DNA from: an uncultured Clostridium sp.
Lineage (GTDB): Bacteria > Bacillota > Clostridia > TANB77 > CAG-508
Length of the DNA: 40,000 bases
Direction: 5' to 3'
Assembly (NCBI GenBank): GCA_947569365.1
Contig: CANOSM010000004.1
Location: forward strand, 37,261-77,260
Part shown: in pieces, positions 7,529 to 36,336 of the stretch
Position numbering within the stretch: position 1 is the first letter of the stretch
Layout of the letters: each line of letters opens with the position of its first letter
Made by a program: the position numbers and the translations under genes
Notes under the pieces: model-generated
Database searches by the model: none
Seen by the model: only the letters and a program-made list of their open reading frames with translations
What the model was told of the DNA's origin: nothing

Positions 7529-7553
7529 GATTATAAATAAGGAGTTTTGCAAA

Positions 7554-8315: not shown

Positions 8316-8346
8316 TAAAATTTAAGAATGTATAAAAGGAGCAAAT

Positions 8347-8994: not shown

Positions 8995-9019
8995 GTAAAA
9001 ATAAAAAGGAGGACATAAA

Positions 9020-9475: not shown

Positions 9476-9482
9476 TATAAAA

Positions 9483-9519
9483 AGAGCATATGCAATGCTT
9501 ATACATATGTTCTTTTTTA
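9483..9519 (+). terminator. hairpin terminator/attenuator after the pilin gene
   Basis: GAGCATATG (9484-9492) pairs with CATATGTTC (9504-9512, one G:U) and is followed by TTTTTT. Confidence 0.55.
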
Positions 9520-9554
9520 ATAAAAAATAAATAGAAAAAAGGAAAGCTATATTA

Positions 9555-18740: not shown

Positions 18741-19581
18741 ACTTATTTACTCTTACAAATTTATAATCATCTAGGTTTGTTAATTGCTTAACAAAGTGTC
18801 CATCATATATTGTAGAATCATTATCTTCTAAAGATATTGGAAGTGATACATTACATACATATTCATCATCATTTGAATTAATAATATGGATTGTAAAATC
18901 TATTGTAGCTCTTATATTAGAAAGAAGAGTATTAGATTTTTTTAGTAATGTACCATCAAATGTTATAGCTCCTGAATTATTTTCTAAAATTAAACTAGAA
19001 TAAACATTTGAATTTACATATGAAAGTGTAAGTGGATTTGAACAATCTGCATAAAAAGAAGGAATAGTATAATCAATGTCTTCATTTTTAGAAATAACAG
19101 AAAAGTCCATTTTTCCATCTATTTGTTTATCTAAATCATTTACTATTCCTATACCTAAAGAATTAGGATTTTTATAAAATAATGATGGATTTCCAAGTGT
19201 AGGTTTAGTAGAAAAATTAACATTATCAATATATAAATTCTTTACTAAATTCTTTGAAGTTAATTTATCTGAATTTACATAATTATTTATATTTAGTGAT
19301 ATATCAGTATATTGATATATATTTAAATTCCAATAGTCTTTTTGTGTATCTGAATTATTAGTTGCATTTGCAGAACTATATAAAAGAATATTATCAATTT
19401 TAAAAATAGTATCTTCTTTTGGAGCTATGGTATTTGATATTTCTGTAATAATATTATTTTTCTTTTCATTATTATTATGATTATATCTGTATATAAAAAA
19501 TCCAATAATTAATACTAATATGACTATAAAAAAAATTATTCTAAAAGTCATTACTTTTTTCCTATTATTTTCTAATATCAT
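18739..19581 (-). CDS. hypothetical N-terminally anchored extracytoplasmic protein (280 aa)
   Basis: TM helix FRIIFFIVILVLIIGFFIY followed by an N/S/D-rich beta-type sequence. GGAGG SD upstream. No recognisable family. Confidence 0.5.
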   Translation of the reverse strand: MILENNRKKVMTFRIIFFIVILVLIIGFFIYRYNHNNNEKKNNIITEISNTIAPKEDTIFKIDNILLYSSANATNNSDTQKDYWNLNIYQYTDISLNINNYVNSDKLTSKNLVKNLYIDNVNFSTKPTLGNPSLFYKNPNSLGIGIVNDLDKQIDGKMDFSVISKNEDIDYTIPSFYADCSNPLTLSYVNSNVYSSLILENNSGAITFDGTLLKKSNTLLSNIRATIDFTIHIINSNDDEYVCNVSLPISLEDNDSTIYDGHFVKQLTNLDDYKFVRVNK

Positions 19582-19731: not shown

Positions 19732-21021
19732 ATGAGAAAAGTAGAATATGTAGTACAAGTAAATGAAGATGTAAAGAAACGAAAACTAATAATAATATCT
19801 TTAATAACAATTATAATTTTAGCAGCACTTATACTTACAGGATTTGTTCTTAAAAAGTCTCTTGCAAGAACAGAAAAAAGCTCTGAAGAAGTTTCTAAAT
19901 CAAATGAGGGAGATATTAAAAAGCAAGAAGAAAAAGAAGGACTTTCTATAGAAAAAAATCTAGATGTGCTAGATGTAAAAAATATATTAAATGAAAATAC
20001 TAAAAATGTTGAAACAAAAACTTTAGTAGTAGATGAAATAGATTTAGATTATAAAACAGTATATAAAGAAAACTCAAATCTAGCACAAGGTATGATAAAA
20101 ACTATACAAGAAGGTATAGATGGTAGTCAACAAGTTATAATTGTAAAGACATACTCTGGTAGTGAGTACATAGGAGAAGAAAGATTAACAAGCAGAGTAA
20201 CTAAAGGAAGTATTGATAAAATAGTAGAAATAGGAACAGGAAAACAGGTTTATTCTTATAAAGTAAAAGTAGGAGATACACTTTTAGTAACACCACCTGA
20301 ACTTACTTTAAGAAAATCAAATAATACAAAGTCTGAAAAAGTATGTGTACTAAAAAAGGATAATGAAGTTTCTTTAGTTGAAATAAAAGATGAATGGTAC
20401 AAAGTAAAATATAAGTCACATATAGGATATGCACAAGCAAATTGTTTTGTAGTTAAAGAGAAAAAACAAGAGCCAACAGTAATTTTTAAGGATGGTAAAG
20501 AATATTCTAAAAAAGAATTACTTGCATCTTTAAGTTTTGATATGCATCTTAATAAGCCAAGTGGTTTAACATTAGATCAATTTAAAAAAGTATTGTCAGG
20601 AAATCCAGCAGATACTAAACATGTAATAGAAGATAATGCGAAATATTTTTATTATGCAGAAAAACAATATAATATTAATGGTATTTATTTAGCTGCTATG
20701 GCAATTCATGAAGGTGGATGGGGAAAATCTAAAATATCAAATGATAAGAAAAATTTATTTGGATATGGTGCATATGATAGAAATCCTTATAGTAATTCAT
20801 ATAATTTTGAAACATATGCAGAGGGTATAGATTTAGTTGCAAGAGCTTTAGTAAAAAATTACTTAAATGAAAAAGGTACAAAGATTTATGATAATCAAAA
20901 AGCAACAGGAAAATATTATAATGGACCAACTCTAACAGGAGTTAATACAAGATATGCATCAGATAAAAACTGGGCAAAGGCAACTTTTAAATGGATGACA
21001 TACTTATATAATAGATTATAA
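19732..21021 (+). CDS. cell-wall hydrolase: TM anchor, G5 domain, SH3b domain, GH73 N-acetylglucosaminidase
   Basis: G5-like YKTVYKENSNLAQGMIKTIQEGIDGSQQVIIVKTY...IVEIGTG. SH3b-like DEWYKVKYKSHIGYAQANCF. GH73 catalytic region YLAAMAIHEGGWGKS...NLFGYGAYD. Confidence 0.82.
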   Translation: MRKVEYVVQVNEDVKKRKLIIISLITIIILAALILTGFVLKKSLARTEKSSEEVSKSNEGDIKKQEEKEGLSIEKNLDVLDVKNILNENTKNVETKTLVVDEIDLDYKTVYKENSNLAQGMIKTIQEGIDGSQQVIIVKTYSGSEYIGEERLTSRVTKGSIDKIVEIGTGKQVYSYKVKVGDTLLVTPPELTLRKSNNTKSEKVCVLKKDNEVSLVEIKDEWYKVKYKSHIGYAQANCFVVKEKKQEPTVIFKDGKEYSKKELLASLSFDMHLNKPSGLTLDQFKKVLSGNPADTKHVIEDNAKYFYYAEKQYNINGIYLAAMAIHEGGWGKSKISNDKKNLFGYGAYDRNPYSNSYNFETYAEGIDLVARALVKNYLNEKGTKIYDNQKATGKYYNGPTLTGVNTRYASDKNWAKATFKWMTYLYNRL

Positions 21022-21032
21022 AATTTTAGGGG

Positions 21033-21062
21033 CAATTAGTTAAATAAAGCTAATTGTCTTTA
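21033..21062 (+). terminator. weak hairpin terminator candidate after the autolysin gene
   Basis: CAATTAG (21033-21039) pairs with CTAATTG (21050-21056), followed by a TCTTTAAATTT tail. Confidence 0.35.
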
Positions 21063-21107
21063 AATTTCTACAAATAAATATTTAATTACAAATTTATAAT
21101 AATCTTA

Positions 21108-21136
21108 TTGCTATTTTTATCAAATTATTGTATGAT
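21108..21136 (+). promoter_or_regulatory. sigma-A type promoter candidate for the 21185-26220 module
   Basis: TTGCTA (21108-21113), 17-nt spacer, TATGAT (21131-21136) with an upstream TG. Confidence 0.4.
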
Positions 21137-21184
21137 AATATATGTATAAAATTAGGCAAAATCAAAAAAATGGGGGATACATAA

Positions 21185-21604
21185 ATGAAAAAATTGTTAT
21201 ATTATATGGTTGCAATACTTATACTAATATTATTACTTGCAGTTCCATCTTATGCATCAACACAAATTGCTACAGAAAAAGGTGTTATGGAAACAGACAA
21301 TGCAACAAAATTCTCACAAATGAAACAAGGATTTGAAGCAAAGTTTGCTCAATACTCAGATAAATATGGTTCTAAAGTTTATGGAGGAGTAGCTTTAGTA
21401 TTAGATACAATAAGAATATATAGTATACCATTTTGCTTTGTAGGTATTGCAGTAGGTGCAATATATCAATATGTAATAGGTATAAGAAAAATGGATGTAA
21501 GAGATAAAGGATTTAATTTACTAATTGCTTTTGTTACAATTTTAGTAATATGTCAAGTATTACCATTAGTATTTGCTATAATTACTAAAGGATGGGTATT
21601 ATAA
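21185..21604 (+). CDS. small secreted/membrane protein (signal peptide plus two C-terminal TM helices)
   Basis: Signal-peptide-like MKKLLYYMVAILILILLLAVPSYAS, a ~45-aa soluble segment, then two hydrophobic helices. GGGGGA SD. Translationally close to the next gene. Confidence 0.5.
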   Translation: MKKLLYYMVAILILILLLAVPSYASTQIATEKGVMETDNATKFSQMKQGFEAKFAQYSDKYGSKVYGGVALVLDTIRIYSIPFCFVGIAVGAIYQYVIGIRKMDVRDKGFNLLIAFVTILVICQVLPLVFAIITKGWVL

Positions 21605-21634
21605 TACGAGAAGACGTTTGGAGGTTTTTAACAA

Positions 21635-24600
21635 ATGAAAATTTTATTTGCAGTAAGTAACGAAAATGTTTCTGACGCAATAGTTAAAAGTTATCAAAAA
21701 AATTATAATGATAGTATTACGTATAAAAATGTATTTTACTTTAATGCAATAATTAAAGAAATTCAAAGAGATAAAGAATATGATAGAATAATTATTAGTG
21801 AAGATTTAGAACCATTTGCTAATAATAATTATGATGCTATAGATAAATTTATTTTTGAGAGATTAGATGCAATAGTTTCAGAAATAAAAGATTTTGCAGA
21901 GAAAAGAATACCTATAATATTAATATGTACTGATAGAAGAACAAAAACAAGTCCAATGATTACAAAAATATTTAACATTGGAATTTATGATGCAGTTATT
22001 GGTTCAGATAGAAAAATAGAAAATGTTTGTAGATTAATAAAGGAACCAAGGACAAAAGAAGATGCAAAACAATATTATAAAATAGAAAGCGGAGATGAAA
22101 ACAATTCTTCTGAAGTTGATATAAGTGAAGAAGAAGTTCAAAATATAGTTAATTATTATAAAAAATTAGGAAAAAATGAGGAAAGATATACAGATAGTTT
22201 TAATAATATAGCTACACAATATACAGATGCACAACTTAAAATAATTATAAGATATTTACCTATAAATGTTAAAGCTATTTTAGAATCAGAATGTGCAAAA
22301 TATCAAGAATTAGTAACATTTGATAATCCAGCGACAGTAAAAGAACAAAAAGAAAAAGAGAGACTAAGAAGAAAAAAACAAAGAGAAAAAGAAGAAGAAG
22401 AGGAAAGAATAAGAGAACAACTAGCACAAAAGAAGAAACGTGAACAAATAGAAAAGAAAAAACAGGCAAATAAATACATTCCTAATAATTCGAAAAATAA
22501 CAATCAATCAGAAAATAAAACTAGAGTGGCAACAGGAATTGGAATATTAGATAATAAAATTAATAGACCTTCAATGCAGGGGAATGTTGTAATTCCTAAT
22601 GCTATAAATACTAAACAAGCTAAAAAGGTATTATCAGACGATGAAATGAATATTCAACCTAGAAAAGTAATAAATAATGAAAATAAAACTGAAAATGTAG
22701 TAAAACCTAAGGTAGTTAATAATGAGCAAGTAGTAGAAAATAGAGAAATAAAGAAACCTGTAGAAAATAGTAAAGAGAAAATTCAAACAGTTAGTTTACC
22801 GGGATTTGAAAATATAGAAACTGACAACATACAAGTAAATGTTAGTAATGATATAGAAGAAGTAGATATAATACCAGAAGAAGTTGTAGTAAAAGAGAAA
22901 AAGGAGGATAACCCAATAAATACTGTGAAAACTCCTGAAAATGATAATAATATAGAAAAAGATATAGAAGTAGAACCAGTAAAAAAAGGAAGAGGAAGAC
23001 CAAGAAAAACTCCTCTACCAGAAGAAAATAAGATACCTATGGTTCAAGAAGTAAAAACAGATAATAATATAAAGACTGTTGAAGATAATTCAAATGATGT
23101 AAATATAATAAGTAATTTAGAAGTAGAACCAACAAAAAGAGGAAGAGGCAGACCAAGAATTACACCTATAGAAGAAGTAGTTGAAAAAACAAAAGGAAAA
23201 AGAGGCAGACCAAGAAAAACTCCTCTGCCAGAAGATAATATATCTATGGTTAAAGATATAGAAATAGATAATGATATAAAAACTACTGAAAATAATTCAA
23301 ATAGTATAGATAATGCAATAAATAATTTAGAAGTAGAACCAGTAAAAAGAGGAAGAGGTAGACCAAGAATTACACCTATAGGAGAAGTAGTTGAAAAGCC
23401 AAAAGGAAAAAGAGGCAGACCAAGAAAAACTCCTCTGCCAGAAGAAAATAATAAGCTTCAAGTAGAAGAAGTAGGAAAAGATAACTTTATTGATATAGAG
23501 GAAGTTCCTAAAAAAGTAAATAATGAGTCAGATAATCAAGTAAGTAACATATTACCAGAAGTAGAAAAAGATGATATTACATCTACATTTAGTTCTTTTG
23601 ATGCTTTTGAAGTTCCAGAAGGAAAGACAGAAGAAACAACCAGTTCAACAATTTTACCAGGTTTTGATGAAGATTTTGAAGAATTGGATAAAATAATAAA
23701 TAATGATAAACAAGAAGATACTATTGAAAACCAGAATTATAATGTATTAGATGATAACTTTGATAATATAGATGATGATAATGAAGATATTCAAGATGAT
23801 ATAAGTGTGGAAGATGAGCAAAGCGAAGAAACTTCAACATTACCAGGTATGATGGATATAGAAGATTTCGAAGACGAAGATAATGTAGAAGAAGATAATA
23901 TTAATGAAAACTTAGAAGAACAATCAGAAGAAGATATAGATTCTTACACAAAACAGGATGATTTACAAGATTTAAATGATTTAAATAATGGAGTCACAAG
24001 TAGTAATAATGTAGTAAATTCATTACCAGGTTTTGAAGACTTAGATGATATGGTAGAAGATGAAGAAGAAAGTAATATAAGTCAAGAAGAAGGGAGCTTA
24101 TTACCAGGTTTTGAAAATGACGAAATTAATTCAAGTGTGGTGGCTGCTACATCATATAGAGAATCTGATTTAGAGAGAACAGCTAGTATAAGGAAATTAG
24201 AAGAAAATAGAGTTTATTCTACTGGTTCATTACAAAGTGCACTTACTCCAGATAAGAAAATAGTAGCTTTTATAGGAACGAGTAAAAATGGAACTTCTTT
24301 TATTGTAAATAATTTAGCAAGTTTATTTTCATCAATAGGTATAAAAACAGCAATATTAGATATGACCAAAAATAGAAATGCATATTATATTTATACAAAT
24401 AATGATGAAAAATTGAGACAAGTTTCTTATGATGCGATAGATAAACTAGAAAATGGAGTTGCAGAAGGAATTAAATCTGATAGAAATTTAGATGTTTATA
24501 CTGCTGTTCCAAATGAAGAAAAAGATTTTTCAAATGCAGAAGCAATATTAACAACTTTAATAAAAAATGAATCACTTGTACTCATTGATTGTGATTATGA

Positions 24601-25102
24601 TACACCTTTAGGATATTTCGCAAATGCACAAGAAATATATTTAGTACAATCAATGGATATACTTACGATTCAGCCACTTACAGCTTTTTTAAGGGAGTTA
24701 AAAGCAAATGGAATATTAGATCAAGAAAAACTAAGAGTTGTTGTAAATAAGGAAATAAAAGTAAGAGGATTAACTTCTAAAACAATAATAGGAGGAATGT
24801 CTTTTTATAATGATCCAAGTATGTCGTATATGACAGAATTATTTAATAAAGATAAAATAAAAGCTTGTACTTTGCCTTTTGAAGATGCTATTTATTCTAA
24901 ATATTTAGAAACACTAGTAAATTGTAATGTTAGCATAAGTGGATATTCAAAAAATTTTATGAATAGTTTAAAAATTTTAGGAAATATGGTATATCCTTTA
25001 TTAAGTAAACAAACATATGTAAAAAATGGACCAGACTATACAAAAAGTAATTTTTCAACAGAAATGAATAATACTTTAAATCAGATGAGAAAGAAATATT
25101 AA
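21635..25102 (+). CDS. 1155-aa protein: pseudo-receiver N-domain, K/E coiled coil, five AT-hooks, acidic linker with LPGF motifs, degenerate ParA/MinD (TadZ/CpaE-like) C-domain
   Basis: N-terminus has a CheY-like beta/alpha pattern without the DD pair (KILFAVSNEN...RIIISEDLEP...IILICTD). Five xRGRPRxTP motifs. The C-terminus has KKIVAFIGTSKNGTSFIVNNLA...GIKTAILDM...LVLIDCDYD, i.e. a deviant Walker A lacking the GK[ST] lysine, plus a Walker B-like strand. Confidence 0.7.
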   Translation: MKILFAVSNENVSDAIVKSYQKNYNDSITYKNVFYFNAIIKEIQRDKEYDRIIISEDLEPFANNNYDAIDKFIFERLDAIVSEIKDFAEKRIPIILICTDRRTKTSPMITKIFNIGIYDAVIGSDRKIENVCRLIKEPRTKEDAKQYYKIESGDENNSSEVDISEEEVQNIVNYYKKLGKNEERYTDSFNNIATQYTDAQLKIIIRYLPINVKAILESECAKYQELVTFDNPATVKEQKEKERLRRKKQREKEEEEERIREQLAQKKKREQIEKKKQANKYIPNNSKNNNQSENKTRVATGIGILDNKINRPSMQGNVVIPNAINTKQAKKVLSDDEMNIQPRKVINNENKTENVVKPKVVNNEQVVENREIKKPVENSKEKIQTVSLPGFENIETDNIQVNVSNDIEEVDIIPEEVVVKEKKEDNPINTVKTPENDNNIEKDIEVEPVKKGRGRPRKTPLPEENKIPMVQEVKTDNNIKTVEDNSNDVNIISNLEVEPTKRGRGRPRITPIEEVVEKTKGKRGRPRKTPLPEDNISMVKDIEIDNDIKTTENNSNSIDNAINNLEVEPVKRGRGRPRITPIGEVVEKPKGKRGRPRKTPLPEENNKLQVEEVGKDNFIDIEEVPKKVNNESDNQVSNILPEVEKDDITSTFSSFDAFEVPEGKTEETTSSTILPGFDEDFEELDKIINNDKQEDTIENQNYNVLDDNFDNIDDDNEDIQDDISVEDEQSEETSTLPGMMDIEDFEDEDNVEEDNINENLEEQSEEDIDSYTKQDDLQDLNDLNNGVTSSNNVVNSLPGFEDLDDMVEDEEESNISQEEGSLLPGFENDEINSSVVAATSYRESDLERTASIRKLEENRVYSTGSLQSALTPDKKIVAFIGTSKNGTSFIVNNLASLFSSIGIKTAILDMTKNRNAYYIYTNNDEKLRQVSYDAIDKLENGVAEGIKSDRNLDVYTAVPNEEKDFSNAEAILTTLIKNESLVLIDCDYDTPLGYFANAQEIYLVQSMDILTIQPLTAFLRELKANGILDQEKLRVVVNKEIKVRGLTSKTIIGGMSFYNDPSMSYMTELFNKDKIKACTLPFEDAIYSKYLETLVNCNVSISGYSKNFMNSLKILGNMVYPLLSKQTYVKNGPDYTKSNFSTEMNNTLNQMRKKY
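22964..23449 (+). repeat. in-frame tandem repeat (units of 150, 210 and about 126 nt) encoding the AT-hook cassettes
   Basis: AATTTAGAAGTAGAACC...CCAGAAGA recurs at 23114 and 23324 (period 210 nt, about 6 mismatches in a 123-nt core by eye). The first unit at 22964 lacks the 60-nt segment that encodes the second hook. Confidence 0.9.
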
Positions 25103-25134
25103 ATATACAAAAATAGTAAAAGAGGTGGATAATT

Positions 25135-26220
25135 TTGGTCTTAATACCAATAGTTGTGCTTGTAGCAATAGTAGCAATTTTAATTTTCTATAATATAAAA
25201 ATAAAAAAACAAATAACAACTTTATCAGATATGTCTAAAAAAGTTAATAATTTAAATGTTTTACAAAACTTTATGGATATTACTGGTGAAGATATTTCAG
25301 TTGATGAAAAAATAAGAAAAGTAAATGAAATTCTTATAGAAAAGTTTGAAATAAAATATTCAACTATTGTTGTATTCAATGGAGCCGAATATATATTAAA
25401 AGCTTCAAATACAGATCAAAAATATTGGCCAAATTTAATGAACTTGCATATGGAAGATGTTTTTAAGGAAAGTATTTCTAATGCAGTTCCAAAATATATA
25501 ACAGTAGATGGAGAGGGAGAAAAACTTCCATATCAAAAATTAGATTTTGGAAGAGCTAAATCCGCAATATTTTTTCCATTATTTATAGATAATGTTTATA
25601 TTGGGTATTGGATTATTGAAAGTTCTGTAATGCATGCTTTTGATAATGTTGATATAGTATTATTAGAAGTAATTAGAGACGATATAGTAGCACTAGTAAA
25701 GACTGTTTCATATCAAGAAGCAATGGAAAGTATAGTAAGAACAGATCAATTTACAGCATTATATTCTGCAGAATATTTATATGGAAAGGCAAAGGCAAAA
25801 ATTGATTCTGAGCCAACTTCTACAGTGAGTATGTTTAGAATAACTAATATAGAAGAAATAAATAACGTATATGGAAGAGTAATGGGAAATAATATAATTA
25901 TAGAAGTTGCAAATTGGGTAAAAACTCTTATTACTTCAGACCAAATTTTTATAAGATATATGGGACCAAAATTTGTAATAGTATTTGTTGGAAAAGATAA
26001 TGACTATGCAACAGATATATTAAAAAGTATGAGAGAAGATATTGAAAGTATAGAATTAGAATCAACAAATGAAAAAGGAGAGAAGATACCTGTTAGACCT
26101 AAAGTAAATTTCGTAGTTTCAACTTATTATAAAGGTACAGGAGTTGAAAAGGTTACTAAGAAGCTAGAGGAATACTTAGATAGTGCTGATAAGCAAGAGC
26201 ATAATATTAATTATATATAA
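25135..26220 (+). CDS. membrane-anchored sensor-like protein with degenerate GGDEF domain
   Basis: TTG start after a GAGGTGG SD. N-terminal TM ([17 protein letters not shown]), a GAF-like middle region, then a GGDEF-fold pattern: [13 protein letters not shown] (D-x-LT-x-L), [17 protein letters not shown] (in place of DxDxFKxxND) and [12 protein letters not shown] (GGDEF replaced by GPKF). No RxxD I-site. Confidence 0.65.
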
Positions 26221-26237
26221 AGATAGGAGTGATGAAC

Positions 26238-26492
26238 ATGGAGAACTTTGATAAAACAATGAGCTTTAAAGTTGAAAAGGAAGATAATATAAAATCAAGA
26301 GAAATTATGAAGGAAGTATATGAAGCATTAGTAGAAAAAGGATATAATCCTATAAATCAAATTGTTGGATATATTTTGTCAGGAGATCCAACATATATAA
26401 CAAGTCATAAAAATGCAAGAAATCTAATAAGATCAGTTGAAAGAGATGAATTATTAGAGAAAATGCTAAAAAATTATATAGGATTAGAATAA
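26238..26492 (+). CDS. ireB: IreB family regulatory phosphoprotein (UPF0297/YrzL)
   Basis: [38 protein letters not shown] is the family signature. The ATG at 26238 has the best spacing from the TAGGAG SD. The listed ORF starts at GTG 26229. Confidence 0.85.
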
Positions 26493-26493
26493 T

Positions 26494-26916
26494 ATGAAAA
26501 AGAGATTGTTAGGAATAGATTATGGAGATGCAAGAGTGGGGATAGCTATATCAGATGCACTTGGAATAACTGCTCAAGGATTAAAAACTATTCATCATAA
26601 TGGAAACGATAAGATTTTATTAAAAGAACTTGATAATATATTAAATGAATATGAAATTTCTACTTTTGTTGTAGGAATGCCATATAATATGAATGGTACA
26701 AGTTCCGATAGAGTGGAAATTACAAACAAATTTATTCATAAACTTAAGTGTAAATACAATAATATACAGATAGAGACTATAGATGAAAGATTAACAACAG
26801 TTGAGGCTCATAGAACAATGAATGATTTAAATATTAATCCTCAAAATAAAAAAAATATAGTAGATACTATCTCAGCAGTATATATACTTGAAATATATAT
26901 GAATAAAATAAAATAA
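26494..26916 (+). CDS. ruvX: Holliday junction resolvase-like / pre-16S rRNA nuclease RuvX (YqgF)
   Basis: LGIDYGDARVGIAISD N-terminal motif, ...VVGMPYNMNGT...DERLTTVEA. 140 aa. Confidence 0.9.
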   Translation: MKKRLLGIDYGDARVGIAISDALGITAQGLKTIHHNGNDKILLKELDNILNEYEISTFVVGMPYNMNGTSSDRVEITNKFIHKLKCKYNNIQIETIDERLTTVEAHRTMNDLNINPQNKKNIVDTISAVYILEIYMNKIK

Positions 26917-27035
26917 TTTAGTTGCACTATTGTATAATTTAGTATATATTATATACAATATTATAAAATAAAGGATGTTTTAAGATATTAATATTTTACA
27001 AGGATTTGTAAATTTTGAAAGGAGAATATAAAAAA

Positions 27036-27356
27036 ATGGATGAAAACAAGGATTTAGAGATTGATGAGGAATTAAATAACATAATAGTATTAAATGATGA
27101 AAATGGAGATGAAGTTGAATTCGAATTTTTAGATTTAGTTGAATATGATAATGAAGAATATGTTATATTATTACCAGTAGCAGCAGAAGATGATGAAGAT
27201 TTAGGCGAGGTTGTTATATTAAAAGTTGAAGAAACAGAAAGTGAAGAAGAAGAATCTTATGTTAGCGTTGATGATGAAGAAACATTAAATAAAGTTTTTG
27301 ATATATTTAAAGATAAATTTAAAGATGAATTTAATTTTGTTGACACTGAAGAATAA
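27036..27356 (+). CDS. DUF1292 (YrzB) family acidic protein
   Basis: IVLNDENGDEVEFEFLDLVEYDNEEYVILLP...VVILKVE is the typical DUF1292 pattern. The ATG at 27036 follows an AAAGGAG SD, and the listed TTG 27015 overlaps that SD. Confidence 0.8.
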   Translation: MDENKDLEIDEELNNIIVLNDENGDEVEFEFLDLVEYDNEEYVILLPVAAEDDEDLGEVVILKVEETESEEEESYVSVDDEETLNKVFDIFKDKFKDEFNFVDTEE

Positions 27357-27379
27357 TATTATATGGATTAACTCAGAAG

Positions 27380-27414
27380 ATAGATAATTTTTATGAAGTT
27401 ATCTATTTTTATTT
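27380..27414 (+). terminator. rho-independent terminator after the ireB-ruvX-DUF1292 genes
   Basis: ATAGATAA (27380-27387) pairs with TTATCTAT (27399-27406), followed by TTTTATTTT. Confidence 0.6.
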
Positions 27415-27470
27415 TAAACAAGTATAATATTTGAAAAAAAATATAATTATAAATAAAGAAATTTATAAGA

Positions 27471-27501
27471 AAAAGCTGATAGAAATATCCTATCAGCTTT
27501 T
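27471..27501. terminator. perfect 12-bp hairpin, likely bidirectional terminator
   Basis: AAAAGCTGATAG (27471-27482) pairs with CTATCAGCTTTT (27490-27501) around a 7-nt loop. It lies 43 nt past the stop of the minus-strand gene. Confidence 0.6.
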
Positions 27502-27543
27502 CTGCAGAAAGAGAAATTTGTACTTTTATATTTTTAGTCTGTA

Positions 27544-27963
27544 TTAAATAAAAGCTTCAAAATATTTTAGTGTATTATCACTACCAAAAATCAGCTCTAA
27601 TTGCTGAATATCCATCGAATTTAATGATGTAATAATAAATTCTAATGAATATTTATATTTAAGTAGAAGAATTTTTTCCATAAATTCATTCTCATGAATA
27701 AAACTGTGTTCATACAGAAAATGGATTATTTGAAATAAAATGTCTTCAGAGTAATCGGTAAGAATATGATTTAATTCATTAATATCAAAAAAGAATTTTT
27801 CTTTAATATTGGATAAATTATCATCTACCATACAAACTGTAATCCGATTATCTCTTTGCTGTATAAGCAAAGGATCGTAATTATCTCCTTCTTCTGGAAT
27901 GATTGCGAATTTCCTAGCAGAAAGACGCAGTGTTGATGGGTTACTTAAAGTTAGATTAATCAT
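27544..27963 (-). CDS. hypothetical protein (139 aa from the SD-supported ATG)
   Basis: ORF without a recognisable family. The GAAGGAG inside the listed 5' extension serves as SD for the ATG at 27963. Contains an in-frame AAT-CGG-ATT read as Arg. Confidence 0.45.
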   Translation of the reverse strand: MINLTLSNPSTLRLSARKFAIIPEEGDNYDPLLIQQRDNRITVCMVDDNLSNIKEKFFFDINELNHILTDYSEDILFQIIHFLYEHSFIHENEFMEKILLLKYKYSLEFIITSLNSMDIQQLELIFGSDNTLKYFEAFI

Positions 27964-28205
27964 GTATAAAACTCCTTCTTCCATTCCTTATATTATTATC
28001 ATAAAAAAATATATAATAATATTAACATAATGTAATATTATTATATATTTTATGCAGAAAAAGTTGACATAAGATAAAATAATATTAATTTATACTTAGT
28101 AATTATAAAGTTATATATATATAAAAGTAAATAAAAATAAATAAGAAAAAAGTTTAAAATAAAAAAAATTCAAATATACTGAAATTTTTTTGATTTAAAG
28201 TATAA

Positions 28206-28234
28206 TTGATTTTAAAAATTATATATGGTAAAAT
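28206..28234 (+). promoter_or_regulatory. sigma-A type promoter candidate (extended -10)
   Basis: TTGATT (28206-28211), 17-nt spacer ending in TGG, TAAAAT (28229-28234). Confidence 0.45.
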
Positions 28235-28266
28235 CTAATATATATTTACAAAGGAGATAAAATAGT

Positions 28267-28737
28267 ATGGTTAGTATGATAAGTTATTTACTTACTTTCT
28301 TAAGTATAATGTTTTGGTTTTTTAGATTAATAGTTGGATATTGTTATACTATGGAAATAGATATTGGTTTTGAGCCATTAAATTTAGGAATAGAAATTGC
28401 ACTATTATTTGCGTCAGTACCATGTATAATACTAATGATAAGAAGAAATTTACTTGGAACATTTATATATGCATTAATGTATTGGATGTATTTTGGTTCA
28501 GATTTAATAATGGTAATAAGTGAAATAATACAAGGTACATATACAAATTCATTAACTTCAACTGCTGTTGCTGCAATTGTTGGAGTAGGAATTCCTTTAT
28601 TTAATTTAATTGATGTTTATGTTAATAAAAATAGAACAGGAAAATTTGGGGATAAAAAAACTGATTGGTTTTATAAGAATAAAGATTATGATAGAAAATT
28701 TGATGAAAGAGCAGATAAAAATAATTATAAATTATAG
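28267..28737 (+). CDS. hypothetical integral membrane protein (about 4 TM helices)
   Basis: Four hydrophobic segments and a charged K/D-rich tail. AAGGAG SD upstream. Confidence 0.55.
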   Translation: MVSMISYLLTFLSIMFWFFRLIVGYCYTMEIDIGFEPLNLGIEIALLFASVPCIILMIRRNLLGTFIYALMYWMYFGSDLIMVISEIIQGTYTNSLTSTAVAAIVGVGIPLFNLIDVYVNKNRTGKFGDKKTDWFYKNKDYDRKFDERADKNNYKL

Positions 28738-28939
28738 ATTAAAAAAGATAAGATTCATTGTGCAGAATTACTTTGAATCTTATTTACTTTTAAATAAAGA
28801 ATATTTTGAAATATATACTATAATTGAAAAACATTACTTTTTATATTATAATCTAGATGAAAAATATATTTGTGATGTATTATAAAAAATATAAAATATA
28901 ATGTTCTATTAAATTAAAATATAGAGAGGAATTATAAAA

Positions 28940-29365
28940 ATGATTAATACAAAACTAACTAAAAAGGCAATGGTTATAGCATATAATGCACATATGAATC
29001 AGTTTGATAAAGCAGGAATTCCATATATTTTTCATCCAATTCATGTAGCAGAGAAAATGGATACAGAAAATGAATGTATTGTTGCACTTTTACATGATGT
29101 TGTTGAAGATACTAATATTACATTTAAACAATTAGAAAAAGAATTTCCAAAAGAAGTAATTGATGCACTAATATTATTAACACATGATAAAGATACTGAC
29201 TATATGGATTATATTAAAAAAATAAAAGATAATTATATTGCCAAGAATGTAAAGATTGCAGATATTATACATAATTCTGATGAGACTAGGCTAGATGAAA
29301 TTAAGCAGAAAGATATTATAAGAATAAATAAATATAAAAAAGCATTAGAATATCTATTAAATTAA
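28940..29365 (+). CDS. stand-alone RelA/SpoT-type HD domain protein ((p)ppGpp hydrolase-like, small alarmone hydrolase family)
   Basis: AYNAHMNQFDKAGIPYIFHPIHVAE...IVALLHDVVEDTNITFKQLEKEFPKEVIDALILLTH matches the HD_4 pattern (H-x-GQ-x-D/RK, PY-x-x-HP, LLHDvvEDT). Confidence 0.72.
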   Translation: MINTKLTKKAMVIAYNAHMNQFDKAGIPYIFHPIHVAEKMDTENECIVALLHDVVEDTNITFKQLEKEFPKEVIDALILLTHDKDTDYMDYIKKIKDNYIAKNVKIADIIHNSDETRLDEIKQKDIIRINKYKKALEYLLN

Positions 29366-29574
29366 ATTTAAAATAATATTAAAATATTAGTATAGTTTGA
29401 TAATAAACATAAATTTTATGAAAAAATGGGAGGACAATTAATAGCAGAAGATGAAGATAATGAAAATAAAAGAATTGTTCAAGTTAAATATTATTATAAA
29501 ATCAAATAAAATAACAGAAAGTAAAAAATAAATAAATTTAGATATTTTTAAATATAAGGAGTAAATGATAAGTA

Positions 29575-30087
29575 ATGATAAATGGAATAATAATTGCAGG
29601 ATTTGCAACTTGTGGAAAAAGTGTTTTAGGGAAGAAATATAGTAATGTAATTGATTTGGAGTCAAGTAATTATAAACATAATAATACTAATATTAAAAAT
29701 ATACCTATCGAAGCGAGAAAAGGCACCAAAAGAGAAATAAGTAAAGAGTGGCCAGATAATTACTATAATGCAATTAGTGAGGCTATAAAAAAGTATGATA
29801 TAGTTTTAGTTCAATTAAAACCTGAACATTTTGACTATTTTGATAAAAACAATATAAAATATAGTATAGCATATCCAAATATTAATAATTGGGAAGAAGT
29901 TGAGAAAAAATGTATTAATAGAGGGAATAATGAAAACTTTATTAGAAAACTAAAGCAAGTATTTATACCATTTTATGAAGATTCCATACAAAGAAATTAT
30001 GAGAATTTATATATTATTAATGAAAATGAAACATTAGAAAGTGTTTTAATAAAAAATAATGTTAAATTAATAGAAAAACATAATTAA
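29575..30087 (+). CDS. P-loop NTPase / putative small kinase
   Basis: N-terminal Walker A in a beta-strand context (IIIAGFATCGKSVLGKK). 170 aa. No further family assignment is possible. Confidence 0.5.
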   Translation: MINGIIIAGFATCGKSVLGKKYSNVIDLESSNYKHNNTNIKNIPIEARKGTKREISKEWPDNYYNAISEAIKKYDIVLVQLKPEHFDYFDKNNIKYSIAYPNINNWEEVEKKCINRGNNENFIRKLKQVFIPFYEDSIQRNYENLYIINENETLESVLIKNNVKLIEKHN

Positions 30088-30180
30088 AACTTATCAGAGA
30101 AAAAATTAAAAAACTTTATATTTATTATGATATAAAAATTATAAAGTAATTTTTATAACTAAATGAGAAGGAGCAAATTA

Positions 30181-31074
30181 ATGGTAGATTTACATATACA
30201 TACAATATATTCTGATGGAGATAGAACTATAGATGAGATATTAAAATTATGTGAAGAAAAGAAATTAGAATATATTTCGATAACTGACCATAACACATGC
30301 AAAGCATATTATGACCAATCTTTAAAGAATAATAAAATATTTAAAGGCAAGATAATAAAAGGTGTTGAAATGAATGCAACATTTCAAAATAAAAAAATTG
30401 AAATTCTAGGTTATAATATAAAAGAAACACAAATAATAGAAGAGTGGTCACAAAAGTTTTTTTCAGAAGAAGTATTAAGAAAACAGTAACAGGAGTCAAA
30501 GAGGAAATTTTTAGATATATGTGATAAAAAAGGTATTATTTATGATGAAAGTAAAATACCAAGGGATGTTCCTTTAACAGATTATATAACAATATATATT
30601 TATAAAGAATTAATTAAACATAAAGAGAATCATAAAATTCTTGGTGAATATGCAAAATCATTAAATCTATTTATTAGAAAAGGATTAATGAATCCAGAAA
30701 GCGAATATTATACTGGCAGTGATGATTTGGCAAATCCAATATATGAAGATGTAATAGATATTATACATAGATCAGGAGGTTTAGCTTTTTTGGCGCATCC
30801 TTTTGAATATAGAATTGAAGATACAATTAAATTTCTTGATGATTTAATGAAGAAAAACGAGTTAGATGGAATAGAATGTTTTCATCCATCTGCTAATGAA
30901 AATGCAACGAATATATTAGTGGAATATGCAAAAAAAAATAATTTATATATTAGTGGTGGAAGTGATTATCATGGAAGCAAAAAGCCTAATATAGAAATTG
31001 GAACAGGTGATGGAAATTTAAAAATTTCTAGAAAAATGATAGAAGAATGGATAGATATAGGGGAAAATAAATAG
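30181..31074 (+). pseudogene. PHP-domain phosphoesterase (TrpH/YciV-like) with an in-frame TAA
   Basis: VDLHIHTIYSDGD and ITDHNT at the N-terminus; LAHPFEY, ECFHP and GGSDYHG at the C-terminus. Both ORFs are in the same frame, separated only by TAA at 30487-30489 (..LRKQ*QESKRK..). The ATG at 30181 follows a GAAGGAG SD. Confidence 0.7.
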
Positions 31075-31217
31075 ATAAAATTTAGTAAAAGTAACTTTAA
31101 CTACAAATAGAAATAAAAAAAATGCTTATATGAAGTATTAAAAATAGGTTTTGCATATTTTAATTAATAATAAAATAATGTAAATCAAATTAAATTTTAA
31201 CTTATAGGAGAAATATA

Positions 31218-31666
31218 ATGGAACCAGAAAGATCACACTTAGATGTGCAGTACATTTATTTTTAGTTGTTGATGGCAAAATATTAGTTGAAAAAAGAAAA
31301 AATAGAGAGTATTGCAACGGAGAATATGATGTTATTGCTTCACATATTCTAGGTGGAGAAAATGCAATTGATGCAGTGATAAGAACTGCTAAAACAGAAG
31401 TAAATATAGTAATTAAAAGGGAAGACTTAGAGATAATACAGGTAATGCATCAAAATGATAATGGACTAGAATATATAAATTATTTTTTTCTAGCTACTAA
31501 ATATTCTGGAATAATAAATAATAATGAACCACAATTTTGTGAAAATTTAGAATGGGTAGATTTTAAATATCCAGTAAACAATTTAGAAAAATACATTAAT
31601 GAAGCAATTAAAAATTATCTTGATAACCAAAATGAAAGATTTACATTTTATGGGTGGAAAAACTAA
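31218..31666 (+). pseudogene. Nudix-fold protein, 5' frameshifted and with a degenerate Nudix box
   Basis: The SD-supported ATG at 31218 is 1 nt out of frame with the long open frame (31208-31666), which encodes RCAVHLFLVVDGKILVEKRKN...GGENAIDAVIRTAKTEVNI. That frame has no start codon before GTG 31376. REXXEE is replaced by RTAKTE. Confidence 0.5.
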
Positions 31667-31856
31667 ATTTTCCAAAAACAGTGAAGAGAAAATTGAAGAA
31701 ATCATTATAATTTCACATTACGAATCTAATTACCATAAAATTAATTTAATAAATGAAGTATTGAAAAATGTGAGATTGAAAAAAGTTTAAAGCAGTAAGA
31801 GATGGAAAAGTAATTATTTAATAATAGAAAATAATAATTACTTAAAGGAGGTATTT

Positions 31857-32832
31857 ATGAATTCAAATAACAATAAAATAATGATTTATGAAGATAAAGA
31901 TGGCGTGACAAAGGTAAATGTTAAATTTATGAATGAAGATTTATGGATTACTCAAAATCAACTAGCAGAGATTTATAAAACTACTCAACAAAATATTAGC
32001 TTACATATAAAAAGTATTTATAATGATGCTGAGCTTCAAGAAAATTTAACTAACAAGAAATTCTTGTTAGTTCAAAAAGAAGAAAATAGAGAAGTAAAGA
32101 GAAATATAGATCATTATAATTTAGATATGATAATTGCTTTAGGATATAGAGTTCAATCAGAAGTAGCAGTAAGATTTAGAATATGGGCAACTGGGAAGTT
32201 ACACGAATACATACAAAAAGGTTTCACAATGGATGATGAAAGATTAAAACAAGGTGGAAATAGATATTTTAGAGAACTATTACAACGAATTAGAGATATC
32301 CGTTCAAGTGAAAGAAACTTTTATCAACAAGTAACAGATATATATGCAACAAGCATTGATTATGATCCAAGAAGTGATATGACAAAGAAATTCTTTGCGA
32401 CAGTGTAAAATAAATTACATTATGCAGTACATGAACATACAGCATCAGAGTTAATTTATGATAGAGTAGATAATGAAAAACCTTATGTAGGAATGAAAAA
32501 TTTTAAAGGAGATTATATTACAATAGATGATGTGAAAATTGCTAAAAATTATTTGTCAGAAATAGAATTACAAAGACTTAATTTATTTTTTAGATTATGC
32601 AGAATTGCAAGCATTAGAGCAAAGAAGTATGAAAATGTCAGATTGGATAGAAGAACTAGATAATCAAATATTATTGAATAGAAGAAAAATATTAGAAGGC
32701 AATGGTAAAATATCTCATGAAGAAGCAATAAAAAAAGCAGAAAAAGAATTTAATATTTATCGTGAAAGAGAAATGAGAGAATTACAAAGTGATTTTGACT
32801 TGATGATGAAATCATTACCAAATAAAAATTAA
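31857..32832 (+). pseudogene. RhuM family virulence/Fic-associated protein, nonsense plus frameshift
   Basis: Family pattern IMIYEDKDG...VNVKF..EDLWITQNQLAEIY..TQQNISLHIKSIY...FRIWATGKL..Y. There is an in-frame TAA at 32406-32408 where the family has FFATVQNKLHYA. A frame change occurs at the T6 run 32586-32591 (..LQRLNLFF / LDYAELQALEQ..). Confidence 0.8.
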
Positions 32833-32878
32833 ATTATATTCCGTCGAATTCGACGTGTTAATAAAGAAGGTGAAATAG

Positions 32879-32938
32879 ATGAGTGATAATAAAGAAGATA
32901 ATCAAGAGGTGTTTTCTAAAACCTCCATCAACTGGTAA
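32879..32938 (+). pseudogene. displaced, diverged copy of the rbgA 5' end (19 codons)
   Basis: Encodes MSDNKEDNQEVFSKTSINW*, compared with MNNNDENMSKMNINWYPGH at the intact rbgA start (34839). The SD regions are similar, and ATCAACTGGTA (32927-32937) matches ATTAACTGGTA (34875-34885). Confidence 0.5.
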
Positions 32939-33033
32939 AGCCTGATTTTAGCAAAACCATTTAAAAGTATTGAAAAATAAGCATTTCTTTTAAATAAGTT
33001 TTTACATAATTATGAAAAAATAGGAGGAATTAT

Positions 33034-33915
33034 TTGAAAAAAGATTTAATAAAGACAGAAATGATAGTAAAAGATACTATAGTAAATGTAATTAGAATTA
33101 ACGGAAGTAATTACATATCTTTAACAGATTTAGCGAGATATGCTAATCCAGAAGAACCTAAAATTCCAATACAAACATGGATGCGAAATAAAAACGTTAT
33201 TTCATTTTTAGGACTTTGGGAACAAATGTACAATTCAAATTTCAAAGGTATCGAATTCGAGACCTTTGAAAATGAAGCAGGAAAAAATAGTTTTTATTTA
33301 TCTCCGCAAAAATGGATAAATACTACAAATGCAATAGGAATCATTTCTAAATCAGGCAATAATGGCGGAACATATGCGCATTCAGATATAGCATTTGAAT
33401 TTGCAAGTTGGTTAAGTCCAGAATTTAAACTTTATTTGATTCAAGAATTTGAAAGATTAAAGAAAAACGAAGCCTATCAAAATCAAGTAGAATGGCATGC
33501 AAATAGAATGCTATCTAAAGTAAATTATTTAATACATACAGATTCAATAAAAAAGAATATTATACCGATGTTATCAGATAAACAGAAAAACTATGTTTAT
33601 GCAGAAGAAGCTGATGTGTTAAATGTAGCTTTATTTGGTATGACAGCTAAGGAGTGGAGAGAGAAATATCCTGAATTAGCTAAAGAAGGAAATATAAGAG
33701 ATTATACGGATTTATTACACTTGATTATTTTGAGTAATCTTGAAGCAAAAAATGCGGACTTAATAGCAAGTGGAATATTACAGAAAGATAGATTGGTAAT
33801 ATTGAATCAAACAGCTAAAGAACAAGTTGAATTGTTAGAGAATAATAAGAATATTAAAGAACTGCAAAGTTTACAAACAAACGTAAATAAGAAATTAATA
33901 AAAGATAAGAATTAA
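33034..33915 (+). CDS. KilA-N domain-containing protein
   Basis: TTG start after a TAGGAGG SD. NGSNYISLTDLARY...TWMRNKNVISFLGLWE...GGTYAHSDIAFEFASWLSPEFKLYLIQEFERLK is the typical KilA-N family block. Confidence 0.8.
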   Translation: MKKDLIKTEMIVKDTIVNVIRINGSNYISLTDLARYANPEEPKIPIQTWMRNKNVISFLGLWEQMYNSNFKGIEFETFENEAGKNSFYLSPQKWINTTNAIGIISKSGNNGGTYAHSDIAFEFASWLSPEFKLYLIQEFERLKKNEAYQNQVEWHANRMLSKVNYLIHTDSIKKNIIPMLSDKQKNYVYAEEADVLNVALFGMTAKEWREKYPELAKEGNIRDYTDLLHLIILSNLEAKNADLIASGILQKDRLVILNQTAKEQVELLENNKNIKELQSLQTNVNKKLIKDKN

Positions 33916-33930
33916 AAGGAAGTAATAATT

Positions 33931-34818
33931 GTGAGTAATAGTAAAAATAACAATGTAGAAAATATTTATTTTAGTGAAATAGAATTTTATAATAAGAGTA
34001 TGATTACTACTACAGATATGGAAAATGTATTTATAAATGAAGATTTATTTAAAACGCCATTATATAAAAAAATAGAAATTGATGAAAATACAATGAATTA
34101 TAAGTTTTTTCCATATGATAGTTTGAAATTAGAATTATATTGTAATGAGTGTAAAAAAAGAAGGATATATTCTTTTATGAATTCTAGAAATGCATTTATT
34201 AATATGGCACCAGGAGCATTAAGAAGTAGTGTTAAAGATGAATTTGAAAGAATAAACTTCTTTAGATTAATTGCTCAAGCTGATTGTGGACATCATGTAG
34301 TGACCGAATTTAGAGTTATAGATAAAAATCATATTGAAAAGATTGGTCAATATCCATCAATATACGATATGAATGAAGAAATAAATAACAAGCAATTTCT
34401 GAAGTTATTGGATGAAGAATATGTTTCTTATTATAAAACAGCTTGTTCTTTATATAGTTTTAATTCCTGCATAGGGGCATTAACTTATCTTAGAAGAATA
34501 TTTGAACAATTGCTAATTGAGATATTTAATTATAATAAAGATAAAATATCAATAAAATTTGATGATTATAAAAAAATGAAAATGAAGGAAAAAGTCAATG
34601 AGATAAAAAGTTATTTGCCACAAATTATGCAAGAACAAGGATTTAATACGATATATACTAAAATAAGCGATGGTATCCATAATTTAAGTGAAGAAGAATG
34701 TTCTACTATATTCCCTGTTTTAAAGGAAGGAATTGAGGAAATTTTAATTGAGAGATTAGAAGAAAAAAATAAAGAAAAACGTAGGAAAGAAATTTCTGAT
34801 AAGTTAAATAATTTATAA
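33931..34818 (+). CDS. hypothetical protein with a CxxC...CGHH zinc-ribbon-like N-region and a DUF4145-like C-region
   Basis: GTG start 15 nt after the KilA-N stop. CNECKKRR...ADCGHH pair. The C-terminal helical region (YYKTACSLYSFNSCIGALTYLRRIFEQLL...ISDGIHNLSEEE) resembles DUF4145 as I recall it. Confidence 0.5.
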   Translation: MSNSKNNNVENIYFSEIEFYNKSMITTTDMENVFINEDLFKTPLYKKIEIDENTMNYKFFPYDSLKLELYCNECKKRRIYSFMNSRNAFINMAPGALRSSVKDEFERINFFRLIAQADCGHHVVTEFRVIDKNHIEKIGQYPSIYDMNEEINNKQFLKLLDEEYVSYYKTACSLYSFNSCIGALTYLRRIFEQLLIEIFNYNKDKISIKFDDYKKMKMKEKVNEIKSYLPQIMQEQGFNTIYTKISDGIHNLSEEECSTIFPVLKEGIEEILIERLEEKNKEKRRKEISDKLNNL

Positions 34819-36261: not shown

Positions 36262-36336
36262 GGCCCCTTGGTCAAGCGGTTAAGACGCCACCCTCTCAAG
36301 GTGGAATCATGGGTTCGATTCCCGTAGGGGTCACCA
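36262..36336 (+). tRNA. tRNA-Glu (anticodon CUC), CCA encoded
   Basis: 75 nt. Acceptor GGCCCCT/AGGGGTC. D arm GTC-AAGCGGTTAA-GAC. Anticodon stem CCACC/GGTGG with loop CU-CUC-AA. T arm ATGGG-TTCGATT-CCCGT. Terminal ACCA. The backbone matches Firmicute tRNA-Glu. Confidence 0.9.

Follow-up and report, generated by a model that had tools for sequence, protein, structure and literature searches.

What do three tightly spaced genes do that stand, in a fixed order, directly ahead of ireB, ruvX and a DUF1292 gene in uncultured gut Clostridia? We studied this question on a stretch of 40,000 nucleotides from an uncultured Clostridium sp. (GTDB order TANB77, family CAG-508; assembly GCA_947569365.1, contig CANOSM010000004.1, positions 37,261 to 77,260 of the forward strand). 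The whole stretch is called the window below, and the three genes are named A, B and C. The domain architecture of their products, the loss of catalytic residues, the synteny and the clade distribution were established computationally. The module proved to be undescribed and vertically inherited, and it consists of pseudo-enzymes embedded in the ireB operon that are all predicted at the cytoplasmic face of the membrane. With a probability of about 0.45, our preferred reading is that in gut Clostridia of the TANB77 type and their relatives A, B and C form a module of proteins without catalytic activity, embedded in an operon, which would tether the nucleoid to the membrane for the control of the envelope or of division. 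A previous sequence-only reading had described three tightly spaced open reading frames ahead of ireB-ruvX-DUF1292, and both the coordinates and the gaps (30 nt between A and B, 32 nt between B and C and 17 nt between C and ireB, all on the plus strand) were reproduced. Its description of the module as inserted was misleading for genes that are inherited in this way as part of an operon, with no recent insertion.

Gene order and distribution of the module

Among species-representative genomes at least 586 relatives of protein C were found, and the loci of the best 80 were retrieved. These 80 relatives all belong to uncultured gut Clostridia; Clostridium sp. CAG:273, Ca. Merdicola and Ca. Scatovivens are members of GTDB order TANB77, family CAG-508 (PMC13106387, PMC13508870). 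The order A-B-C-ireB-ruvX-DUF1292 was present in every one of the 80 retrieved loci with a long enough flank, so that the three genes co-occur as the earlier proposal of a common unit implied. Even where identity falls to 51% for C and to 34% for B, gene order and short spacing were conserved, in contrast to the reshuffled flanks: upstream of the module, a glucosaminidase gene was found in 31 loci and leuS in ten, and VTC, DUF4956 and Cthe_2159 genes were found in locus L004. This conservation argues against the idea that three lineage-specific genes of unrelated roles share the ireB operon by chance, and so does the prediction that all three proteins meet at the membrane. That C is dispensable in some lineages would be expected from such a coincidence, which we nevertheless regard as very improbable.

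Four distant lineages were compared as well. In their B homologues (34-40% identity) both the N- and the C-domain described below are still present, and so is the loop GxxKxGT[ST]F. The linkers of these proteins are either E/K/Q/R-rich and coiled-coil-like or N/Q-rich, without AT-hooks, and their tails ([KR][KR]G[LF]F[GK]) resemble the membrane-targeting tail of MinD. Three of the four lineages have an A homologue followed by B, ireB, ruvX and DUF1292, with no GGDEF gene; in two of these (loci L089 and L090) a gene for a carboxypeptidase of the penicillin-binding protein 5 (PBP5) type lies just upstream. In the fourth, a differently degenerate GGDEF protein (SGQRL) is encoded between B and ireB. 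The gap between B and ireB is 12-16 nt in the distant loci. As A, B, ireB and ruvX are kept in these lineages, mostly without C, the core of the module would be A and B coupled to ireB-ruvX. Protein C, absent from three of the four, and nucleoid tethering, with AT-hooks absent from all four, would thus be clade-specific additions.

A second motif like the membrane-targeting sequence (MTS) of MinD was seen after the N-domain in the distant homologues P0502, P0495, P0490 and P0475 (L089 8001-10943, L090 8001-10379). These motifs read KKGLFGFRKNK, KKGILGFLKNKK and KKGGLFGGFKKHK, which suggests that distant B homologues may carry two membrane-binding elements.

In agreement with the earlier view that the unit is undescribed, A and B belong to no family in Pfam, NCBIfam, PADLOC or PHROGs. 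PADLOC gave no match for the module, and the PHROG matches below 1e-4 were generic GGDEF matches of C, those of A and B being marginal only. On these results, anti-phage defence or a phage origin of the module was rejected. In TANB77 the operon is nearly universal and marks the clade, an uncultured order of the human gut that has gained clinical interest through a link between its abundance and the response to immunotherapy (PMC11680825).

The two domains and the linker of protein B

Sequence searches with protein B returned no Pfam (E ≤ 1) or NCBIfam match, phmmer against the PDB found nothing, and a family profile of the C-domain was equally without a match in the PDB. The C-terminal 305 residues gave 347 clusters among 1.84 billion representatives; the search had therefore not expanded into the canonical ParA family, which would have added thousands of clusters. 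The ParA-like domain that had been proposed from the sequence is thus invisible to sequence methods, and it was confirmed by Foldseek on an AlphaFold2 (AF2) model. Among the top 50 PDB matches were mostly ParA, Soj, MinD, BcsQ, FleN and FlhG. The top families, Borrelia ParA-type proteins included, had E values of 2e-7 to 3e-5 and TM-scores to the target of ~0.6-0.72. Model and structural matches place the C-domain in the SIMIBI ParA/MinD fold.

The P-loop of this domain differs from that of its structural relatives. More than 170 homologues share, almost without exception, the consensus GxxKxGT[ST]F, none of them has GK[ST], and the deviant Walker A motif KGGxxGK[ST], with its signature and P-loop lysines, is not found in B. 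In a weak hhalign alignment with E. coli MinD, of 26 columns around the P-loop, GTSF...LDMT fell on GKTT...IDFD, with K16 of MinD replaced by T. By the same weak alignment, the position of MinD K11 is taken by Thr, Ala or Ser in the B family, whose members keep both the Ser/Thr and the Asp of switch I. D135 and D137 at the Walker B position were invariant. Since both lysines of the deviant Walker A motif are replaced, B should not run an ATP hydrolysis cycle of the MinD/ParA type. As modelled, the C-domain has the ParA/MinD fold but not the pair of lysines on which the chemistry of that family depends.

We compared B with three known systems. It shares with MinD the fold (Foldseek matches 4v02, 3q9l, 3r9j and 1g3q), the position of the P-loop between β1 and α1, the Asp at the switch I and Walker B positions and, putatively, a C-terminal tail, amphipathic or of the basic-GLFG kind, after a flexible segment, which is clearest in distant B. 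In contrast to MinD, it shows no similarity at the level of sequence (as seen from the 347 clusters and the empty profile search of the PDB), has lost both Walker A lysines and is preceded in the same polypeptide by an N-domain of 230 aa and a linker several hundred residues long; moreover, the module contains no MinC, MinE or DivIVA genes. TadZ/CpaE joins an atypical receiver domain to an atypical ParA/MinD domain and acts as a non-motor localisation scaffold, an architecture that B, with its putatively receiver-like N-domain, resembles. TadZ, however, keeps the motif K/RGGxGxS/T (bioRxiv 10.64898/2026.07.08.737194), where B has GxxKxGT[ST]F, and the absence of any Pfam match of B at E ≤ 1 means that there is no sequence-level hit to TadZ or ParA models. 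B also differs in its long disordered linker with AT-hooks, and it lies outside any tad/flp locus, always upstream of ireB-ruvX, the pilus genes of the window being of the type IV kind. TadZ (3FKQ) was not among the top 50 Foldseek matches of B. The third system, BcsQ-BcsE-BcsF of cellulose secretion in E. coli, resembles the module in combining a ParA/MinD-fold protein, a degenerate receiver/GGDEF protein and a small membrane protein, and BcsQ was among the top structural matches of B (6yay, 6yb5, 6ybb). Unlike in the Bcs system, the ORFs of the window that were compared with Pfam included no cellulose synthase gene, and neither did the precomputed domain tables for the relatives that were examined. 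BcsE binds cyclic di-GMP (c-di-GMP) by a motif of the I-site type, which C does not have; BcsQ binds ATP (6ybb), and the domains are distributed otherwise among the polypeptides. At the level of sequence or motif, B is not a member of the MinD, TadZ/CpaE or Bcs families; we take it to represent a new family of pseudo-ATPases with the ParA/MinD fold, in which both the architecture and the genomic context are new.

The spatial organisation of bacterial cells depends chiefly on ParA/MinD proteins, which are seen as ATP-driven pattern formers, and the B family would be a clear natural case of a positioning ATPase made into a static scaffold. A review describes those A/D (ParA/MinD-type) ATPases that carry an MTS at the C-terminus as users of the membrane (PMC11407121). 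In three homologues of B (P0423, P0429 and P0434) an N/Q-rich, prion-like extension of 200-280 residues stands between the ParA-like domain and the conserved terminal motif SxLNKMK.

In the AF2 model the N-domain has the (βα)5 order of a flavodoxin or receiver, with an additional helical subdomain. At the position of the phospho-Asp of receivers Glu56 is invariant, and equivalents of the Thr and Lys are missing from the alignment. hhalign against E. coli CheY found nothing, as did the family profile against the PDB. From its topology, we infer that the N-domain is probably a pseudo-receiver. It is followed by a K/E-rich helix at aa 235-279 and then by the disordered linker. The length of B ranges from 641 to 1249 aa. 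Its linker, of 50-850 residues overall and of about 200 to 850 in the orthologues surveyed for AT-hooks, differs widely in composition and length among species and cannot be aligned outside the hooks. Most entries for B in protein databases cover only one end of it, as N- or C-terminal fragments of 200-530 aa, and none of those returned was the full-length protein. These fragments likely stem from metagenome assemblies or gene calls that break in the repetitive, low-complexity linker, which, if true, would hide the B family from surveys of domain architecture.

The sequence-only reading had pointed to AT-hooks in B, and five RGRP cores with basic flanks, as KRGRGRPRK or KGKRGRPRK, are indeed present in the B protein of the window; by its sequence, this R-G-R-P core is an AT-hook motif. 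Pfam AT_hook scored E 0.79 on B, the model being too short for significance. Exactly two hooks, spaced ~17-25 residues apart, occur in 70 of 76 orthologues, and L007 has three. Their consensus is PK(K/R)GRGRP(R/K)K, and RGRP does not vary in any of 150 hooks; outside the hooks, only 1.3% of the linker residues are Arg. The invariance of paired hooks within an unalignable, Arg-poor linker is, judged from the alignments, strong evidence that they are functional. The extra copies in the window are explained by a tandem repeat of 210 bp, a duplication that is a recent copy-number variation in a predicted DNA-binding element. Thr-Pro sites beside the hooks were considered as kinase targets and dropped, as they were not conserved in orthologues.

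Paired AT-hooks and a membrane-type tail on one polypeptide with the fold of the ParA family could also mean that B fixes a part of the chromosome to the membrane or pole, as RacA or Noc do, for segregation or sporulation. Sporulation genes do occur near the module (SpoVG and a SleB-like gene in L004, Spo0A in L089 and L090). The Noc protein of nucleoid occlusion in Bacillus binds both chromosomal DNA and, via an amphipathic helix, the membrane; it has a ParB-family fold, is CTP-dependent and recognises specific Noc-binding sites. B would share with Noc the proposed binding of DNA and membrane in one protein, without homology. AT-hooks, however, give no sequence-specific recognition of an origin at 25% GC, the module holds no parS/ParB-like partner and is part of a housekeeping operon rather than of an obvious sporulation regulon, and distant lineages have no recognisable DNA-binding element. 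We therefore consider anchoring of this kind quite improbable.

Proteins A and C and the proposed role of the module

Protein A had been described as a small bitopic protein. Instead, an alignment of 27 sequences that included distant lineages revealed a signal peptide that looks cleavable and in which the Ala at -1 is invariant, followed by an extracytoplasmic stretch of ~45 aa and a hairpin of two transmembrane (TM) helices, which are joined by a conserved cytoplasmic loop of ten residues (IRKLDxRDKGF). No Pfam, NCBIfam or PDB family was found for A, and its matches were chance similarities of TM segments. An analogy of A and B to the bacterial tyrosine (BY) kinase pair CapA-CapB was dropped, as no BY-kinase was among the structural matches and the topology of A differs.

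Protein C consists of an N-terminal TM helix, a GAF/PAS-like domain (aa 56-199), a linker helix and a GGDEF domain (AF2 pLDDT, the predicted local distance difference test score, 81.7). Pfam recognised the last as PF00990 (7.4e-12, 45.8 bits against a cutoff of 23.8), and Foldseek matched C to GGDEF structures with a root-mean-square deviation of 2.6-3.3 Å. The best full-length PDB matches were PAS- or GAF-GGDEF proteins, namely DosP, Dcsbis (4zmu) and phytochrome-linked cyclases. The sensor domain is, as modelled, GAF/PAS-like, a description that covers both folds because the two are not distinguishable here; it is very highly conserved (LPYQK...FGRAKSA). Aligned to DgcR (PDB 6zxb), C has RIT in place of DID, GN in place of GD and MGPKF in place of GGEEF, which removes the metal-binding D-x-D and the G-D that contacts the base. 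Upstream of the GGDEF position there is no RxxD, and five residues upstream, at the place of the I-site of c-di-GMP receptors of the PopA, PelD or BcsE type, neither Arg nor Asp is conserved in 48 homologues. The earlier description of C as a TM-GAF-like protein with a degenerate GGDEF domain lacking catalytic features and RxxD was thus confirmed by Pfam, by the 6zxb alignment and by AF2 and Foldseek.

The degenerate site itself is strongly conserved. RYMGPKF is invariant in the 48 homologues (55-91% identity) and in all loci, and the guanine-contacting Asn N243 is invariant as well, indicating that the site is under selection and not decaying. In the same 48 sequences Arg and Lys (R235, K279) hold the two positions of the metal-binding acids. 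Judged by these residues, C is predicted to be catalytically dead and unable to make c-di-GMP. The name diguanylate cyclase that public records give to proteins of the C family is almost certainly wrong, since MGPKF is invariant and the metal ligands are gone. Other Firmicutes also possess membrane-associated GGDEF-fold proteins without cyclase activity, such as GdpS, YdaK and GdpP, of which YdaK uses an I-site and GdpP is a c-di-AMP phosphodiesterase. C gave only a weak NCBIfam match to GdpS (E 0.003, far below the cutoff). All three differ from C in their membrane and sensor modules, and none of them carries MGPKF or is encoded beside a pseudo-MinD.

In our preferred reading, the module would be expressed together with ireB-ruvX-DUF1292. 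B would form its core as a long, two-headed scaffold with a pseudo-receiver and a pseudo-MinD/ParA head that works independently of hydrolysis, held at the inner face of the membrane by its terminal tail, by the conserved cytoplasmic loop of A or by both. In the clade of the window, two AT-hooks of the HMGA type would bind the AT-rich chromosome (~25% GC) and turn this scaffold into a tether between nucleoid and membrane. C would act on it as a ligand-responsive adaptor, a membrane-anchored, GAF-like sensor with a dead GGDEF domain, and the module would coordinate growth of the envelope or division with the position of the chromosome. What we infer from these features comprises the binding of membrane and DNA, the formation of a complex and the role in the cell. 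A role in the envelope or in division is suggested by the invariant coupling to ireB and by the peptidoglycan enzymes that are frequent upstream. Envelope growth or division is most plausibly the physiological target, and this is the weakest step of the reading. IreB/ReoM is a substrate of the PASTA kinase that is controlled by phosphorylation and governs the stability of MurA in Listeria (PMC8528326). The tie to ireB offers an entry point to how these Clostridia with reduced genomes coordinate chromosome, membrane and wall.

Several observations weigh against the tethering module. The link between A, B and C is putative, and a tight operon is not easily broken up, which by itself could keep the module beside ireB. 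As hooks are lacking in all the distant lineages and C in three of four, DNA tethering and C cannot be the ancestral function. K34 of the C-domain, inside the P-loop, is invariant in an alignment of 34 sequences and near-invariant family-wide, and together with the retained Ser and Asp ligands it makes non-canonical nucleotide binding by B possible. The receiver-like assignment of the N-domain follows purely the order of modelled secondary structures. With regard to an MTS of the MinD type, B has a conserved terminal helix and distant B has GLFG-like tails, but the hydrophobic-moment score of the tail of B was no different from background.

The coupling to ireB would also suit a signal relay that works without tethering. 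In such a relay the GAF-like domain of C would detect a small molecule, or its remodelled GGDEF pocket a guanine nucleotide, and B would hand the signal on to IreB, to the PASTA kinase and to the synthesis of peptidoglycan, with linker and AT-hooks as accessories. Such a relay is consistent with the module invariably adjoining the gene of a phosphorylation-controlled regulator of MurA, with the high conservation of the GAF-like domain and with a pocket in which N243 is invariant and the metal acids have become R235 and K279. It is harder to reconcile with the three of four distant lineages that keep A-B-ireB without C. Furthermore, B bears no resemblance to kinases, phosphatases or known partners of IreB, and the strict conservation of two hooks argues for functional AT-hooks. 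We consider the relay unlikely.

A bolder reading, which we hold to be distinctly unlikely, would make B a hydrolysis-dead descendant of MinD and the missing nucleoid-occlusion or division-site system of Clostridia. Together with A and, in TANB77, with C, it would read the position of the chromosome through the AT-hooks while on the membrane and feed into the control of peptidoglycan by the PASTA kinase and IreB. If this were true, pseudo-enzymes would have replaced the ATP-driven patterning of the Min and ParA systems.

The sequence-only reading had connected the module to pilus placement. A type IV pilus (T4P)-like cluster does lie in the window at 5894-15514, 5.7 kb upstream of the module, with genes for PilD, PilB, a PilT-like ATPase and PilC. 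TANB77 carries a clade-specific pilus cluster, one pilin of which enhances anti-PD-1 therapy (PMC11680825), and the cluster of the window may be this TANB77-exclusive one. If the module served this machine, B would act like TadZ/CpaE, which also joins an atypical receiver to an atypical ParA/MinD domain, and C like a degenerate GGDEF protein of the FimX/PopA type. The retrieved flanks reach ~4-5 kb upstream of A, and pilus clusters farther off fall outside them. Within these flanks, matches to PilC were found upstream only in L010 and matches to the adjoining ROK gene only in L010 and L016, two close relatives, which gives pilus genes upstream in 2 of 87 other loci. Ten loci have leuS upstream, with no pilus-cluster match between leuS and the module, and the L004-type loci have VTC, DUF4956 and Cthe_2159 there. 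The distant lineages keep A-B beside ireB with no pil genes in ±8 kb. Because the adjacency is not conserved, because B departs from TadZ on two of three counts, having no K/RGGxGxS/T and lying outside any tad locus, and because C has no I-site, the pilus link is unsupported, and we regard it as highly improbable.

Transcription signals and neighbouring genes

The features of the locus are collected in Table 1. Shine-Dalgarno sequences precede the starts of A (GGAGG), B (GAGGTG) and C (AGGAG), and the ATG of ireB is also the start in public gene calls. A terminator scan of the plus strand from 20900 to 28300 found none, and the first hairpin with a T run lies past the six genes, in line with the earlier statement that there is no terminator before 27380. 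The hairpin behind the gene of the preceding peptidoglycan hydrolase has a stem too AT-rich for the scan to score and likely ends the preceding transcription unit. As for the promoter proposed at 21108, the sequence is present, but in this AT-rich DNA it is indistinguishable from chance, as 68 promoter-type matches occurred where 58±6 were expected. Upstream of A, Rfam recognised neither a riboswitch nor any other RNA; its sole match in the whole window was a tRNA-Glu at 36262.

Table 1. Coordinates of the module, its domains and motifs, the transcription signals and the pilus genes within the window
Feature	Position	Strand	Basis or remark
Gene A	21185-21604	+	ORF, 139 aa
Gene B	21635-25102	+	ORF, 1155 aa
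B N-domain, aa 1-230	21635-22324	+	AF2 pLDDT ~90
B disordered linker, aa 282-843	22478-24163	+	pLDDT 30-40
210-bp tandem repeat, 2.2 copies, 86% match	22990-23451	+	carries AT-hook cores
RGRP cores	22991-23002, 23144-23155, 23201-23212, 23354-23365, 23411-23422	+	AT-hooks in repeat
B C-domain, aa 845-1155	24167-25099	+	Foldseek against PDB on AF2 model, pLDDT ~90
Degenerate P-loop GTSKNGTSF	24275-24301	+	between β1 and α1
Terminal helix, putatively amphipathic, FSxxMNxTLNxM(K/R)KKY	25052-25099	+	alignment of tails
Gene C	25135-26220	+	ORF, 361 aa, TTG start
C GAF/PAS-like domain, aa 56-199	25300-25731	+	AF2, Foldseek
C degenerate GGDEF domain, aa 203-361	25741-26217	+	Pfam, Foldseek
MGPKF	25960-25974	+	alignment
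ireB (ReoM family)	26238-26492	+	Pfam IreB 2e-39; NCBIfam equivalog above cutoff
ruvX (YqgF)	26494-26916	+	Pfam RuvX 3.3e-40
DUF1292 gene (YrzB-like)	27015-27356	+	Pfam 1e-15; public gene calls start at 27036
Hairpin, 7-bp stem and T-rich tail	21033-21056	+	read by eye, 3' of G5-SH3-glucosaminidase gene
Sigma-70-like promoter candidate TTGCTA-17-TATGAT	21108-21136	+	9/12 match
AT-rich hairpin, then TTTTTATTTT	27380-27416	+	read by eye; first terminator-like structure past the six genes
Perfect 12-bp hairpin, A and T runs on flanks	27471-27501	.	read by eye; bidirectional terminator between convergent genes
N-methyl pilin	9020-9475		pilus cluster
PilD	9555-10364		pilus cluster
PilB	11394-13025		T2SSE 1.9e-103; sub-threshold MshEN domain
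PilT-like ATPase	13047-14000		pilus cluster
PilC	14606-15514		pilus cluster
ROK gene	15817-16728		adjoins pilus cluster

Two genes at 17227-18427, one AlbA_2/Schlafen-like and one HATPase_c_4/Fic-like_C, lie in the interval that separates the pilus cluster from the module; they were found only in contigs of the window's own strain and in no other locus. The next two genes are semi-conserved neighbours of the module in closer relatives. One (18739-19581, minus strand) encodes an N-terminally anchored protein of 280 aa of unknown family and is present in 20 loci; the other (19732-21021), a peptidoglycan hydrolase of G5-SH3-glucosaminidase architecture, is the glucosaminidase counted above. Downstream of the operon, the region 27544-34818 varies between relatives and looks like an island, in which most ORFs have no counterpart in other loci. 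A RhuM-like gene (31857-32408) and a KilA-N gene (33034-33915) belong to this region, and conserved synteny resumes at a GTPase gene (34839-35732).

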